A stretch of 64,000 nucleotides of DNA from Lama glama (lineage: Eukaryota). Below the pieces are notes generated by a model. It saw only the letters and a list, made by a program, of their open reading frames with translations, did no database searches and was not told the origin of the DNA. The DNA lies in the NCBI GenBank assembly GCA_028534125.1, contig CM052816.1, positions 6,016,001-6,080,000 on the forward strand. The letters are read 5' to 3'. Every line of letters starts with the position of its first letter. Within the stretch, counting starts at the first letter, position 1. Below are positions 2,418-54,770 of the stretch, in pieces. Made by a program: the position numbers and the translations under genes.

Positions 2418-2594
<177 letters not shown>

Positions 2595-5571: not shown

Positions 5572-6400
<829 letters not shown>

Positions 6401-30950: not shown

Positions 30951-33073
30951 CAGGCCTTGTAATATGGTGGGAAAGCTGGATGGCAAGTTGAGAGGCCGAG
31001 TCCACATTTGGGCCCTGTCCCCCGTTAGTGCTGTGACCTCACGTCTATCTTCTCCTCAACTTGCTTGTCTTGACTTCTTGTCTGTCAAGAAAGAAAGTAT
31101 TCCTTGTCTTGTCTTATCACATAGAGGTACCAAATTAGATGCCATATGTCAAGGTGCTTTTAATCTAAGTGTACAATAAGAAGGCAAAAACACTCTTTTC
31201 CTGAGGGTTAAGGCTGTAGGCTCTGACCCCAGTTGCTCTGCCACTTACTAACTATGTGACCATGAATAAGTTAACTTTCTGTATGGTGGTGTCCTCATCT
31301 GTAAAGCCATCATAATATTATCTGTGTATGAGTGGTTTGGTTAATGTATCTATGACAGTGAAAAGCAGTGTCCAAGTGCCATAAATGTTTACCATTATTG
31401 TTGCTTTTTAAAAATTATTATTATCAACAATGTTGGTGGCAATCAGGAGGAGGTCTGCTCTCTTTCTTTCTTTCTTTTTCTTTTTTTCTCTCTTTCTTTT
31501 TATTGAAGTACAGTCAGTTACAATGTGTCAATTTCTGGTATATAGCATAATGTCCCAGTCATGCATATATATATATATACACATATATTTGTTTTCATAA
31601 AGGTTATTACAAGATATTGACTATAGTTCCCTGTGCTATACAGAAGAAATCCAGTTTTTATTTATTTTTATATATACTGGTTAACATTTGCAAATCTCAA
31701 ACACCCAAATTTATTCCTTCCCACCCACTTTCCCCTGGTAACTATAAGATTATTTACTATATCTNNNNNNNNNNNNNNNNNNNNNNNNNNNNNNNNNNNN
31801 NNNNNNNNNNNNNNNNNNNNNNNNNNNNNNNNNNNNNNNNNNNNNNNNNNNNNNNNNNNNNNNNNNNNNNNNNNNNNNNNNNNNNNNNNNNNNNNNNNNN
31901 NNNNNNNNNNNNNNNNNNNNNNNNNNNNNNNNNNNNNNNNNNNNNNNNNNNNNNNNNNNNNNNNNNNNNNNNNNNNNNNNNNNNNNNNNNNNNNNNNNNN
32001 NNNNNNNNNNNNNNNNNNNNNNNNNNNNNNNNNNNNNNNNNNNNNNNNNNNNNNNNNNNNNNNNNNNNNNNNNNNNNNNNNNNNNNNNNNNNNNNNNNNN
32101 NNNNNNNNNNNNNNNNNNNNNNNNNNNNNNNNNNNNNNNNNNNNNNNNNNNNNNNNNNNNNNNNNNNNNNNNNNNNNNNNNNNNNNNNNNNNNNNNNNNN
32201 NNNNNNNNNNNNNNNNNNNNNNNNNNNNNNNNNNNNNNNNNNNNNNNNNNNNNNNNNNNNNNNNCAGGCCTTGTAATATGGTGGGAAAGCTGGATGGCAA
32301 TTGAGAGGCCGAGTCCACATTTGGGCCCTGTCCCCCGTTAGTGCTGTGACCTCACATCTATCTTCTCCTCAACTTGCTTGTCTTGACTTCTTGTCTGTCA
32401 AGAAAGAAAGTATTCCTTGTCTTGTCTTATCACATAGAGGTACCAAATTAGATGCCATATGTCAAGGTGCGTTTAATCTAAGTGTACAATAAGAAGGCAA
32501 AAACACTCTTTTCCTGAGGGTTAAGGCTGTAGGCTCTGACCCCAGTTGCTCTGCCACTTACTAACTATGTGACCATGAATAAGTTAACTTTCTGTATGGT
32601 GGTGTCCTCATCTGTAAAGCCATCATAATATTATCTGTGTCTGAGTGGTTTGGTTAATGTATCTATGACAGTGAAAAGCAGTGTCCAAGTGCCATAAATG
32701 TTTATCATTATTGTTGCTTTTTAAAAATTATTATTATCAACAATGTTGGTGGGAATCAGGAGGAGGTCTGCTCTCTTTCTTTCTTTCTTTTTCTTTTTTT
32801 CTCTCTTTCTTTTTATTGAAGTACAGTCAGTTACAATGTGTCAATTTCTGGTATATAGCATAATGTCCCAGTCATGCATATATATATACACATATATTTG
32901 TTTTCATAAAGGTTATTACAAGATATTGACTATAGTTCCCTGTGCTATACAGAAGAAATCCAGTTTTTATTTATTTTTATATATACTGGTTAACATTTGC
33001 AAATCTCAAACACCCAAATTTATTCCTTCCCACCCACTTTCCCCTGGTAACTATAAGATTATTTACTATATCT
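30951..33073. repeat. ~810-bp direct repeat (30951-31764 and 32265-33073) flanking an assembly gap; probable haplotypic false duplication
   Basis: The two copies abut the N-run and differ by 5 substitutions, a 1-bp indel and a 4-bp (TA)n length difference. Confidence 0.9.
31765..32264. other. Assembly gap (500 N)
   Basis: Run of N read directly. Confidence 1.
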
Positions 33074-40008: not shown

Positions 40009-40077
40009 AGCTTTGCGCAGTGGCAGTATCGTAGCCAATGAGGTTTATCCGAGGCGCGATTATTGCTAATTGAAAAC
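40009..40077 (+). pseudogene. U4 snRNA retropseudogene, 3'-truncated (nt 1-69), no poly(A), with 13-bp TSD
   Basis: agctttgcgcagtggcagtatcgtagccaatgaggtttatccgaggcgcgattattgctaattgaaaac matches the U4 5' half as I recall it. Flanked by aaaaccaagcaga at 39996-40008 and 40073-40085. The Sm site and 3' stem-loops are absent. Confidence 0.95.
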
Positions 40078-42914
40078 CAAGCAGAGCAGAAAACAAAAGT
40101 GAAATGAGAAAGATAAAAGGATGTGGATGAAAACCAGGGGGCCAGGAGGGGAGGAGCTTGGAGCGGTGGGCGGCAACTCACAATGCTTGACAGAGACACC
40201 CTCTGTGCGGTGGCAGCGGTGTTCCCCAGATTCTCTTGCAGACCCGCCAGAGAAACACACACGTGGGCCTCGCCTGCAGTGACTGGTCATGGACATTCTA
40301 ACAGTCAAAGGAACCAAGGCGCTGAATGAGACTTGTTTATTTAAAGAGAAGAGACACCAATTTGTAGCATTTGTAGCAGCTTGAGATCCAGTTCTCTTGT
40401 ATCGTTGCTGTGCTTAAAGAGGCTGAACGAGCCATCAGTAAACTGCACGGTGGGAGAGCCCCTCCCTGCTCCCGGGGCCGCCAGGTGTGAAAACCCACAG
40501 CCTGCCTTTTCTCAAGTTTTGCTCTTGTTCCTTAGATTGGCAAGGAGTTGGGTGCCCTTAAAGAGGGTAGACTTGGCTTTGTCAGTAGATTCTTTACTGT
40601 TTGTTCATTAGTTTGTTTACTCATTCATTCATTCGTTCATTCATTCATTCACTCATTTATTCATAGTGCTATTGAGCATCTACTTTGCCAGCCTCAATTC
40701 TAAGCACAAGGGAGTATAGAGGAACACAAAAGACAGGGTCACTGCTCTGCTACCCTCACGGGGTTTACATTTCAGTGGCCTTGGGCTATGCACCTGTCTT
40801 ACATTCACTGAACATGTTTTATCCATTAGGATTTATGCGAGATGCTAGGAAAACTAAAATGAATGAGAAGGTGGACCCTGTAGTAATACCAAGGACTCAG
40901 GCAGATGATTGTATTTTTAATAATATAGGGGCAGTCTGAGAGCCAGGTCCAAGGAGGGTATCTAACTTAGCAACATGAGGGGAAATGTCTTCAAAAAATT
41001 GTTTCTCAAAAAGGACTTGAATTTATCTTTCTGTTTCGTAGTTATTGTCCAGTAAATAGTTGAATACTCACAATGCTTAGAAGAGTGTGTGCCACACGTA
41101 AGCCCTAGATAAACTCTTGTGCATGTCATTTTTAGCTAGGCATAGTATTAGGGACATCGGAAAGTAACGAGTACTAAACCTAGAGGCAGCTATACCTCTG
41201 GACAATGAGACCAGAGAGAGGAAGGAATTTTTCCAACTGGAATAAGAATGAGAATCTGCAGACACCTAGTCTGGTTTCTCTCCAGTACGATGCTATTGCA
41301 CACACTACGGGCAGCGCCGCGGAATTCATTGCATGGGTCTCTATTTTTAAAAATGAATAATGAGCTCTTAACACGCTCTTTGTAGACAGGCCCAGAGAGC
41401 AAAGGCGGCTGAATTCATCCTTTCTCAGCTGTATCAGACCTAGAAATTTCTCCTGGAGTGATGCTCAGGGAGAGAAAGCTGGGGGTTCTGCCACCATCTG
41501 TTCTAAGTAAATACCACCACTGGTCTTTATTTAGCAATCGCTCTTCCCAAGATCTCCGCGCTCGAGTTTAGAGGGGAAGGATGCTGGACACAGGGCAGTC
41601 AGCCAAACTCAAGTGGAGGAATAGTTACCGCATCAAACCAAGGCCATGCACGGTCTCGGACCAAACCACAGAGGCTGCTGAGTACATCACAGCTGGGGCC
41701 TGGCCAAACCCTGGAGAACGCAATTCCTCAGTCCCTGCAGCAGAGAAGTACAGTTTGGATATTTAAATCCGGGCGTATCTTGCCTGTGGGCTATGTTTCC
41801 AAAGGCAAATATTGTTGAGCGAGTCATTCCGTCATGCTGTGCCGTGGGTGGCAGCAGGTTGAGGGGACTGGGAACAGAGCCAGGACTGGGGTAGGCAGCA
41901 CGGAGGAGACGTGGGGGTGGGGGGAGTGATGGGGTCAGAAGCCAGGCCCGCAAGTCACAAATGTTACAGGATGAAGCTGTGTAGGAAGGTCCAGAGGTTG
42001 TGCAAATGTGAACCCACAGGAAACGAGGTCTGCAAAGTCTGGTAGCTCAACACTCAAGTAAAGAACCTGGAAACTGAGCCAAGGCACAAGCGGCGTTTTG
42101 CCAGCGGCAAGAAAAGGACTGTGACGTGGAGACTTTCTGACCCAGTCTCCTCTGCCTTGTGTTTCTTTTCATCCCCGTCGGAGCCAATTGAAAGCCAGCC
42201 AAACCCAAAGCCCCTGTTACCTTTCTGCCATCACTTGTTTAGATTCCCAGGCAGGACAGGGAACATACCAGGCTCTGGCTGCAGTATATTTATGATGCTC
42301 AGGCTCAATGAAAAACCTGCAGGGAGTGAGTTCTTAGTAAGAAGTGGAAAAGGGAGTATTTGTTCATTCATTCATATATTTATTCAGCGCCTTCCATGTG
42401 CCAAACACTGTGCTAAGTCCTGGAGATAAAACTGACACACAAAGGCAGCCGTGGTCTGTGCGCTCATAGCTTACAGACCTGTTGTGGAGAGTAGACGTTA
42501 ATCAAAGATTTATAAATTGAGAGAGAGAGAGAGAGACAGGCAGAGAGACACCACTGTGGTACATGCTCCAAACGAGAAGTAGCCAGGTCTGTCAGAGAGA
42601 TATGAACTGGTCAGGGTAGTCAGAGGAGACCTCCCGAGAAAGTGACCATTTGAAGTTTGCAAGAAAGAAACTAAAGTTTGGGAGTGGAAGAGAACATTCT
42701 GGTTCTTCTGCTAACGGACCTCAGCAGGAGGGAGCAACGTGAGACTGAATGCTTTATTTATTTCACAATTCAGTTTTACGATTAAGTAATTCAGTCATAC
42801 AGCAGCCCGCCGTGTGCTAGATGTGGGGTAGAATCCAAGTTTAGAAGGTACAGACCCTGTGCTGAAGAAGAGCTATTGTAAGAGGTCCAAACCTACCACA
42901 GGTTTTTATTGAAT

Positions 42915-48775: not shown

Positions 48776-49559
48776 GCTTGGATCCATCGAAATGCCCTTC
48801 TAGAGGTAGGAAAGGAGTGTACCTCTTCTGAGTCAAATGAGGGGAAATCTCACACTTGAAAAAGTCAGGAGTGCATTAGGGAGGAAGCAAAGAGAAATGG
48901 ATGGCAGGGAGGCAAACAGGTATGCCCCTTGAGACAATTTAGGAAACATCTCTTATTGATCCTGGGGCATGAAACTTTATCTGCAAACACTTTATCAAAA
49001 TATTCTTTCAATCCTTTCTACTACCCTGGAGGAATTCTCATAAATAAAAATTTTCTCCATCTCATTATATTTCCAATGAAACATGAATATCCTCACAGAT
49101 GCTCCCAAGGGGGCCAGAGATCAAGGGTACCTTTCTTATCAGAGGCAGACACGGGGACAAATAAGCCATTTTGAGTCATTCCCCGTGGGTGACGCTACTG
49201 AAACAGAGCTTCTGGGACTTAGGTCACTTGCCTCTGTGGCAAGTAATTTAAGAAAAACTTCTGTTTTATTCCTTTTGCTTCTATTCTGGCTTTGGAATTT
49301 GCCTTCCAGAGTTTGAGAGGAAATGGGATGCATTACAAAGATCACAGACAGAAATTCAAGAGACCTGGCCTCAAATTGCTGCATGCCCTTGGGGCAGTCC
49401 CCTTACCTACTAAATAGACAGTGATGAGTGCAACAAGAACATAAAGGTAAATTGCTCTTCTGAGTCTGAAGGACACGCAGATGATCCCTCGTAGTTTGGA
49501 GGAGAGAAGAGGGTTCTTAGAGCAAGAGCAGGTGAAATAAGTCTTCAGGGAGTGGTGGT

Positions 49560-50250
49560 AATTGAGAGGGCGGCGAAGGGGCCTCAGGTGGCAAGAGTAT
49601 GGGATTGATTGAGGGTTGGGGGAGCCTGCAGGAATGCTGGGAGGGGAGGAGCGTGGAGGTGGAGCTGGGAGGGGGAGTTCTGGATGGATCAGAGGGGGGA
49701 GTGGGCGGTTCTCGGGGGCGGGGCGGGGCGGGGCGGAGCTGCGAGGGCACAGGACGCTCACCCGCCGCTCTGCCCGCTGCCCCCGCTGCGGCCCCAGATC
49801 TCCGCTCTCTGTGGGCAGCTCCCTGCCGCAAGTCCGCCATCTTTGTCTCCTAGCTGCCCTTTCGCTCACGTTCAGTTCCCCGCCCCACGAAGAAGGACGG
49901 AGTCGCCTGCTCCAGTGTGTTGAGGCAAGTGTATTTCACTTAAAGTGAACAAAATTGAGTTCCTTGGCTTTATAAACTCCTGGTGCACACTCCATATGTT
50001 TTCTCATGGCTTTCTGGAAAAAGCTCTGCCGTAACCGTCTCGACCAAGCAGGCAGGTGAACGGAAGGCCGCTCAGTGTTTCCAAAGGGAGTGACCGGTCT
50101 CCTTTCGGGAAAGAGAATTTTCCAGAAGGTAGTTGAGAGCAGAGGACGGTGTCGGGGTGGAGGGTAGGGAGTTCCCTCAGGGACCATCAGCGGGGCCGCT
50201 TTTCAGGCTAACGGAGTTGGGTACTGAGGAACGCGAGCTAAAAAGCTTGC
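49560..50250. promoter_or_regulatory. Orphan CpG-island-like promoter element with tandem GC boxes and a YY1 motif
   Basis: Sharp local rise in GC and CpG; (GGGGC)4 at ~49715-49736; CCGCCATCTT at 49834-49843; TTTATAAA at 49969-49976. Confidence 0.7.
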
Positions 50251-51310
50251 CTTAGAGATTTTTGCAGGGACGCTACCATTTGCAGTAATGGAGCAAGCCC
50301 TCTACTCATCTAATTGGAAAGAACTGTGGGTGGAGTGGGGCAAAGGCAGGGGGAGAGCAGGTGTTACCAGTTACTCAGGCTGACGCCTGATGAGCCTGGA
50401 GGGAGGAGTCAGTGCGCTGCCCTGTGCCTCCAAGAGATTGGGAAGGACACTGTTTCCCTGCTCCGAAAAATGCCCAGGTGAAGACTTGGGAGCTCAGCTT
50501 GAGAATTGAAATAGTTTGGATTCTGTATGCTTTGCAGCATCCTCAGGACGCCAGTGCCTTTTGAGAAACAACGTATGTAAGTGAGTCTCTGTTCAGTAGA
50601 GCCCTATTGAAATCGCTGCGTACGGTTTCTGAACCTCAGTTTTCTCATCTATAAAACGGAATAATTATACTCTACCTCCTGGGTTTGTTGTGAGGATGAT
50701 GTAAGAGATACTGTCTTGATACAGGTCAGCTTATCTAATCCTCACCACGGCCCTAGAAGCAGGGACTATTAGCATGCCCATTTTAAAAGTGAGGACACTC
50801 AGGTACCCGGTTACATGGTAGAGCTGAGATTTGAACCCGGGCAGCTTGACTTCAGAGCCTGAGCCCCGTGTTGTGCGTCTTGGTGCATCATTAGGACTCA
50901 ACAAATAGGGGTTGGATAATGTTGGTGTGCACAATTTTATAAAAATCCCTTTTCTTAGTGTCAAAAGGCTCCCAGACTCTGAAAAACCGTGGGGGCATAA
51001 GAAGAGAAAGGGAGAAAGAAGGGGCACATGCAGGAAGGGCCTGTTGCTTTTCTGGAATTGGGATGGGCTGGACCAGGTGGATGCTCACAGCACTCCTGCC
51101 TGCTGGTGCAGCCAAGTGTCTGTGGAGTTGGGTTCAGGACCGAGAAGGCATGGGTGAGCTGGGTAGCCGCTAGGCTTTATGTCAGATTCTACTCTGATGT
51201 GCTTTGGGAGGTTTGGAAAGACCTTGGGAAAGTCCTCAAACCATTGTGAGTCTCCATCATTCTGTACGAAGGGGATAATCCTTTCTGTTTTCCCTCAGAA
51301 TAAGCTTTTG

Positions 51311-53519: not shown

Positions 53520-54770
53520 ATTCATTAATTTAACACATTTTTGGATTTCTCTTAGATGAAGGGCACTGTTGGAGGACTGAGGATACAGTAATGAATAAAA
53601 AATGTCCTTGACCTAATGGAACCTGTAGTATAGGGAAGGGAGACAAATGGATAAACATACACTTTGGTTTAAGCCAGTGAATGATAAATATTATTAATGA
53701 AAAATTCAGTAAAAATAGACCTTTAAGAAGGAAGAAAGGGAAGGTGTCACTTTAGATATGTGATATGCAACTGCTTCTTTAAGGAAATATCTTTGAACAG
53801 AATCTGAATGAAACAAAGTATTAGGTAAATATCTGAGAGGAAAGCTTTCCAGGCAGAGAAAACAGTCATTACAAAGGCTCTGATACAAGCTGGATTTCTT
53901 GTTCTGGAAAAGACTAAGGGCAGAGTGGTTAGGATAGAATGAACAGAGGGAAGAGAGGTAGAAAGTGAAGTTGGAAGCATGGTCAAAGGCCAGACCTGGT
54001 AGGGCTTTGAAGTCCATGGTAAGAACTAATATTTATGTATGTGTAAATTAACAAGTCATTAGAGCGCTTGATCTGGGGAATGGCATGATCTGATTTACAT
54101 TAAAAAATTTTTTTTATTGAAGTACAGTTACTTACAATGTGTCAGTTTCTGGTGCACAGCATAACATCCCAGTCATGCATATACATACATATATTTGCTT
54201 TCATATTCTTTTTCATTAAAGGGTACTGCAGTATATTGAATATAGTTACCTGTGCTATACAGAAGAAATTAGGTTTTTATATATAGTGGTTAAGATTTGC
54301 AAATCTCTAACTCCCAGATTTATCCTTTCCCACCCCTAGTAACCATACAATTGTTTACTACGTCTGAGAGTCTGTTCTTGCTTTCTATATGAGTTCATTA
54401 GTGTCCTCTTTTTTCTTTTTAGGTTCCACTTATGAGTGATATATATTTTTCTTTCTCTTTGTAACTTCACTGAGAATGATGATCTCCAGGTCCATCCATG
54501 TTGCTGCAAATGACATTATTTTATTCTTTTTTATGGCTAAGTAGTATTCTATTGTACAAATATACCACAACTTCTTTATCCAGTCGTCTGTCGATGGACA
54601 TGTAGGTTGCTTCCATGTCTTGGCTATTGTATATAGTGCTGCTGTGAACATTGGGATGCAGGTGTCTTTTTGAATTAGAGTTCCCTCTGGGTATATGCCC
54701 GGGTAATTTACTTTTAAAGGATCACTTTAGTTTCTGTGGTGCGAGTAGACTGTACCAGGATTAAAGTGAG
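53520..54770 (-). mobile_element. L2 fragment interrupted by the L1 at 54107-54702
   Basis: ttcattaatttaacac...gatacagtaatgaataaaa...ggcatgatctgatttac [L1] ttttaaaggatcactttag. Confidence 0.7.
54107..54702 (-). mobile_element. Young camelid-type L1, 5'-truncated
   Basis: ttttattgaagtacagttacttacaatg...; reverse-frame peptide FTAALYTIAKTWKQPTCPSTDDWIKKLWYI is the L1 ORF2 C-terminus. Confidence 0.93.

Follow-up and report, generated by a model that had tools for sequence, protein, structure and literature searches.

The region upstream of GRIA1 in Lama glama harbors a solitary CpG island at positions 49700–50271 of the window, i.e., of the whole stretch of 64,000 nt analyzed here, and the layout of the motifs within it appears to fit that of a promoter. 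The island may be an orphan CpG-island promoter without a TATA box, of the GC-box/YY1 type, directed toward GRIA1 and followed by a first exon that is most likely non-coding, a tentative reading to which a probability of about 0.4 is given. GRIA1 is a central AMPA-receptor subunit gene. A second promoter located 44 kb upstream of it, if true, would change the reading of GRIA1 regulation and of its non-neuronal expression, and could account for regulatory variants in the upstream region of the gene. Mammalian genomes hold thousands of orphan CpG islands with promoter-like sequence; judged by its motifs, the llama island is, as it stands, one more of these and ordinary in kind. Its value is that of a marked candidate for RNA-seq, CAGE, or methylome tracks of the species.

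A Single-Copy CpG Island Upstream of GRIA1

The window was scanned in 637 sliding windows of 300 bp, with a filter of GC ≥0.55 and CpG observed/expected ratio (o/e) ≥0.6. Three of the 637 passed the filter; they overlapped one another and all lay at 49501–50000, and the segment 49700–50271 is the only CpG island in the 64-kb window. CpG islands are commonly defined by a length of at least 200 bp, a GC content of at least 50%, and a CpG o/e of at least 0.6, and the segment lies within these limits with 572 bp, a GC content of 0.584, and an o/e of 0.74. The island is small and weak. Nevertheless, its o/e contrasts with the background value of 0.25 in the rest of the window, and the 36 CpG dinucleotides observed compare with 12.1 expected at the background decay rate (Poisson P ∼2e-8). 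Five of these CpGs are supplied by a (GGGGC)x4 pentamer run, and the retention of CpG reaches well past this run. TpG and CpA show no excess within the island (o/e of 0.86 and 1.00, respectively, versus 1.18 and 1.25 outside). The simplest account of the retained CpGs would be a lack of methylation in the germ line, of which this retention without a TpG/CpA excess is an indirect sign.

A query of 801 nt covering the island, compared with the 2.35-Gb assembly, gave one match, which was the island itself. Similarly, a 30-mer covering the YY1 motif was found at one place in the assembly with up to three mismatches allowed, and its reversed control at none. It follows from this single-copy status that the CpGs of the island do not stem from a young repeat or a recent duplicate. 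The earlier note had named an L1 or ERV 5′ fragment as the finding that would undo its proposal, and such an origin is excluded since the island is present in a single copy. An L1 5′ UTR or ERV LTR fragment was accordingly rejected as a candidate, as many related genomic copies would be expected, as against the one match found. The promoters of L1 5′ UTRs and ERV LTRs also carry YY1 sites, and the island resembles them in having a YY1 motif near a putative start in GC-rich DNA. It differs from them in its single copy and in its surroundings, where no retroelement domains were found within 8 kb on either side.

The coding potential of the surroundings was assessed by a Pfam search with 60 ORFs (stop to stop, ≥70 codons) from 42–58 kb. 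None of the 60 reached a family cut-off, the MoaF_C match scoring 18 bits against a cut-off of 22.1. The suggestion of the earlier note that the island might have belonged to a relic gene thus gained no support, as the read-through ORF described below also lacks a protein relative. Analysis of 49000–51000 with Rfam gave nothing above threshold and one sub-threshold match (17.2 bits versus 42).

Metagenome contigs were scanned for the YY1 motif followed by a donor at a gap of 55–85 nt, and the 77 loci returned were rejected as orthologues. Their alignment with the island extended over no more than 28 nt in any case (best E 0.055; the median GC of the loci was 0.64), and they are therefore considered chance matches in microbial DNA. 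In 22 sequencing runs, the share of 99 sampled words of 49400–50400 was determined, a measure that carries no weight for expression, tissue, or splicing. With this proviso, the share was 0.13–0.18 in four RNA runs from one study, 0.04–0.10 in other possible RNA runs, and 0.84–0.92 in five runs of organism B, their kind not given.

Organization of the Promoter-Like Motifs

The motifs were analyzed on the minus strand, which is the GRIA1-sense strand. Every sequence feature listed in the earlier note was located at the coordinates given there: the palindromic TTTATAAA at 49976–49969, the segment aaagATGGCGG with its ATG at 49840–49838, and the 79-nt open frame MADLRQGAAHRERRSGAAAGAAGRAA+G, which ends at CGG/GTGAGC with 49762 as the last exonic base. 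Just past this donor lie the GC boxes, in the form of (GGGGC)x4 on the plus strand at 49714–49734. The order in the GRIA1-sense direction is GC box, YY1 motif, donor 49762, (GGGGC)x4, a C/T-rich tract, a second donor-like site at 49407, and AATAAA.

The GC box GGGGCGGGG (49878–49886, minus strand), which we take to be of the Sp1/KLF type, is situated 35 nt upstream of the YY1-type motif AAGATGGCGG (49834–49843, minus strand). The YY1 10-mer is in GRIA1-sense orientation and has one match in the window versus 0.05 expected; at least one match was obtained in 5 of 100 shuffles. From these two motifs we infer a core promoter of the GC-box/YY1 type that lacks a TATA box and is directed to GRIA1, in which transcription would start ∼10–30 nt upstream of the YY1 motif, at ∼49850–49875, with the GC box at 49886–49878 just upstream. 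The arrangement resembles that of the downstream core-promoter motif of YY1 (Xi et al., 2007, described in PMC8384218) in the sense-oriented AAGATGGCGG beside a GC box, in the TATA-less GC-rich setting, and in the motif's own ATG in strong Kozak context. It differs in that the published motif is defined by its place just downstream of the start, and the start considered here is a predicted one. An AG at 49940–49939, preceded by a T-rich run, would also allow an internal rather than a first exon.

The palindrome TTTATAAA (49969–49976), ∼130 nt upstream of the ATG, was considered as a TATA box of the promoter unit and rejected, because it has seven matches in the 64-kb window, an unremarkable number, and because YY1 motifs are virtually absent from TATA promoters according to PMC8384218. 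It also lies ∼100 nt further up than the likely start region, and a start shortly before the YY1 motif argues against its belonging to the promoter unit.

The strength of the donors was expressed in bits on a 5′ splice-site frequency matrix. The donor-like site CGG/GTGAGC (49756–49764, minus strand) scored 8.71 bits, as compared with 8.67 and 8.29 bits for the donors of GRIA1 exon 1 and exon 2, respectively, on the same matrix. Such scores are reached or exceeded by 56 of the 6752 GT sites in the window, which corresponds to 0.44 per kb per strand. The second donor-like site, TAG/GTAAGG (49401–49409, minus strand; last exonic base 49407), is stronger with 9.8 bits and lies beyond the stop of a 107-codon read-through ORF (49517–49840).

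The first AATAAA in the GRIA1-sense direction is present at 49265–49270 (minus strand), 600 nt from position 49870, and a U1-type site at +108 is placed ahead of this signal at +600. In PMC5378174, this order of U1 site and poly(A) signal serves to predict stable transcripts. Because a U1-type donor (49762, or the stronger 49407) precedes the first poly(A) signal at 49270, elongation and splicing would be favored. The most likely product would be a non-coding transcript of low abundance or an untranslated first exon.

An apparently remote intergenic island in single copy, in which GC boxes, a YY1 motif, and a donor follow one another much as in a promoter, is comparable to the orphan CpG-island promoters reported earlier (Illingworth et al., 2010; Deaton and Bird, 2011; both as cited in PMC5378174). 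The published islands are characterized by measured initiation, RNA polymerase II, and non-methylation, and the llama island by its sequence.

The ATG-to-Donor Open Frame Is Probably Incidental

The open frame between the ATG and the donor (49762–49840, minus strand) comprises 79 nt, i.e., 26 codons and 1 nt, and ends in phase 1. The earlier note had regarded it as a first-exon-like coding unit. The features on which this view was based are present; the argument for a coding exon is weaker than the note had it, because the ATG, its Kozak context, and the YY1 motif are the same ten letters and because open frames are usual in GC-rich DNA such as this. The ATG at 49840–49838, with A at −3 and G at +4, is contained in AAGATGGCGG, and the ATG, the strong Kozak context, and the YY1 motif are consequently one observation and not three. 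An in-frame TAG is found four codons upstream of the ATG. A run of 26 codons would be open by chance with a probability of 0.63, as estimated from the local composition and stop frequency, and five stop-free frames of 95–197 codons cross the island on both strands.

The frequency of such units was evaluated in 2000 dinucleotide shuffles of 49500–50400, with a Kozak-ATG, an open frame, and a GTRAG donor as the target. The unit occurred on the GRIA1-sense strand in 59 of the 2000 shuffles (36 of 2000 also in phase 1) and on either strand in 335 of 2000. The real sequence of 49500–50400 contains just one such unit with both strands counted. The unit is mildly unusual and, having been singled out post hoc from 64 kb, makes no compelling case for a coding exon.

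Read without splicing, the ATG frame continues into the 107-codon ORF at 49517–49840, which is proline-rich and of low complexity. A protein search with its 107 residues, covering 320 candidates of near length and 7908 longer ones, returned no protein with E ≤0.01; for the island peptide itself the search is a weak one, as a match of 26 residues may miss this threshold. The 79-nt open frame is probably incidental. The ATG with its Kozak context, the 26 open codons, and the agreement in phase with GRIA1 exon 2 would be by-products of the YY1 motif and of the GC-rich composition. The GC box, the sense-oriented YY1 motif, and a donor as strong as those of GRIA1 itself are the remaining non-trivial features.

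Relation of the Island to GRIA1

The island is located 44.2 kb from the GRIA1 ATG, and none of the 60 ORFs of 42–58 kb around it belongs to a Pfam family at cut-off. The coding part of GRIA1 exon 1 (5577–5658, minus strand, 82 nt) encodes the signal peptide and ends at the donor TCG/GTGAGT. Exon 2 (2423–2560, minus strand, 138 nt, GGLFPNQ...MTYR) starts at 2560, which was proposed as the landing site for the island donor. The distance, the phase, and the in-frame join of 49762 to 2560 were all given correctly in the earlier note, which had suggested that the island could be a distal alternative GRIA1 promoter or else the promoter of an unannotated lncRNA or relic gene. A transcript of the former kind would skip the proximal promoter and exon 1, and its first ATG would lead in frame into a GluA1 devoid of the signal peptide, unless the transcript were merely a regulatory 5′ variant.

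We consider such a promoter very unlikely, even though several observations are in agreement with it. The island is oriented as GRIA1 is, its donor equals GRIA1's own donors in strength (8.71 versus 8.67 and 8.29 bits), and its frame ends in phase 1 as does exon 1, the join reading ...GRAAG-GLFPNQ. The phase match, however, has a 1-in-3 probability by chance, and the ATG and its Kozak context belong to the YY1 motif. The GRIA1 proximal promoter (5800–6300, minus strand) is GC-rich (0.57–0.70), but its CpG o/e of 0.27–0.55 falls below the island limit and none of its windows passed the island filter. The use of distal intergenic islands as alternative promoters, with splicing into genes that have no island at the proximal promoter, has been documented (Sarda et al., 2017; PMC5378174). 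The llama island shares with those islands an upstream sense-oriented position, a proximal promoter outside the island limits, a U1 site ahead of the first poly(A) signal, and a donor compatible in frame. It differs from them in that the junction is putative and in its distance of 44 kb, as compared with an average of 10 kb for the islands used, which in PMC5378174 lie nearer, by several-fold, to the genes concerned than the unused ones, a tendency and not a criterion. The name GRIA1 has no occurrence in the main text of that paper, and no match to it was found in the 11 of 23 supplementary files covered.

The N-terminus encoded in the island was present in none of ten short database proteins that contain the exon 2 peptide, which is weak evidence against the distal promoter. 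Two of the ten had the canonical exon 1, two were predictions with other N-termini, and six were apparent genomic read-throughs of intron 1. As GluA1 follows the topology of type I membrane proteins, a form starting with MADLRQ... in place of the signal peptide would be expected to end up with its large extracellular domains on the wrong membrane face. To our knowledge, no human GRIA1 first exon has been annotated this far upstream. Among the papers listed, the literature search found none on an upstream GRIA1 promoter; PMC12455821 describes a novel exon 2a located within GRIA1 and, in the passages covered, mentions no upstream first exon.

Still more doubtful is a variant in which the island serves as a tissue-restricted distal GRIA1 promoter, e.g., in reproductive or non-neural tissue, where the 79-nt exon would be joined to exon 2 and an Arg/Ala-rich N-terminus would replace the signal peptide. 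If true, this would yield a non-secretory GluA1 with a different intracellular fate or a regulatory transcript that passes through the neuronal promoter and interferes with it.

Among the database entries, a "hypothetical protein" of wild sheep (P0004) has an unrelated upstream peptide, MTQNGLFVCMSNSDRKGRTLLAC, joined directly to GRIA1 exon 2. Gene predictors therefore evidently propose other first exons for the exon 2 acceptor.

Direction of Transcription and Other Possible Roles of the Island

A promoter directed toward GRIA1 is not the only role that would agree with the motifs. The (GGGGC)x4 run (49714–49734, plus strand) forms tandem GC boxes and a G-quadruplex motif of textbook form with one-base loops, and the latter is on the template strand for a GRIA1-sense transcript. 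Downstream of donor 49762, the sense strand is a C/T-rich tract (49480–49750, minus strand), with a plus-strand GC skew of +0.39 to +0.68. Strong CpG-island promoters typically have a G-rich non-template strand, and the sense strand of the island is the opposite of this. The C-rich sense strand past the exon thus stands against the preferred reading, as does the finding of the ATG-to-donor unit in 335 of 2000 either-strand shuffles.

The direction of the promoter is also left unsettled by the plus strand, where donor-like sites occur at 50055, 50477, and 50576/50580 where six U1-type hexamers are present, and where no AATAAA or ATTAAA is found for 3 kb. The island might accordingly promote a plus-strand transcript leading away from GRIA1, or be bidirectional with the minus-strand unit as its short upstream-antisense side. 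Consistent with this, CpGs remain enriched for 400 bp on the plus side of the YY1 motif (to 50271), the plus-strand GC skew is positive over 50000–50400, and the five GGGCGG boxes at 49703–49736 would sit upstream of a plus-strand start. The YY1 motif would, however, be reversed, and the nearest plus-strand donor-like sites score 7.4–7.7 bits against 8.7 and 9.8 on the minus strand, and a plus-strand or bidirectional role is regarded as unlikely. We likewise rate as unlikely that the island belongs to a distal regulatory element without a stable RNA, e.g., a poised enhancer, a target of Polycomb/Trithorax, or a tethering element, which may act on GRIA1 from 44 kb away. A lone island in CpG-poor DNA beside a tissue-specific neuronal gene, with dense GC boxes and a G-quadruplex motif, would suit such an element, and orphan islands with enhancer activity have been described (PMC4989897); the order of GC box, YY1 motif, and donor is, however, that of a promoter. 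The island could also be a GC-rich patch that arose by chance, partly as a (GGGGC)n microsatellite, with no function and with coincidental motifs. Its small size, the five CpGs contributed by the pentamer run, the shuffles on either strand, and the choice of the candidate by a reader after a 64-kb scan all speak for chance. The count of 36 CpG as compared with 12.1 expected (P ∼2e-8), the retention of CpG beyond the pentamer run in conjunction with the absence of a TpG/CpA excess, and the expectation of 0.05 YY1 10-mers per window speak against it, making this explanation decidedly unlikely. The preferred reading continues to be that of an orphan CpG-island promoter directed toward GRIA1.

Other Features of the Neighborhood

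The DNA adjoining the plus side of the island, at 50630–50870 (plus strand), resembles an MIR element by eye. Further to the plus side, a 98-codon open frame at 54430–54726 (minus strand) was assigned to no Pfam family in the search; it bears a resemblance to the C-terminal end of an L1 ORF2 protein. An assembly gap of 500 N (31765–32264) is located between the island and GRIA1 exon 1. The one Rfam match at gathering score was to U4 spliceosomal RNA, at 40009–40083 (plus strand), with 74.8 bits and with model positions 1–138 covered in 75 bases; the desert upstream of GRIA1 thus probably contains a shortened U4 pseudogene at this site. In the same part of the window, the segment 40578–40664 comprises a 23-bp tandem duplication and an adjoining (TCAT)x11 microsatellite.
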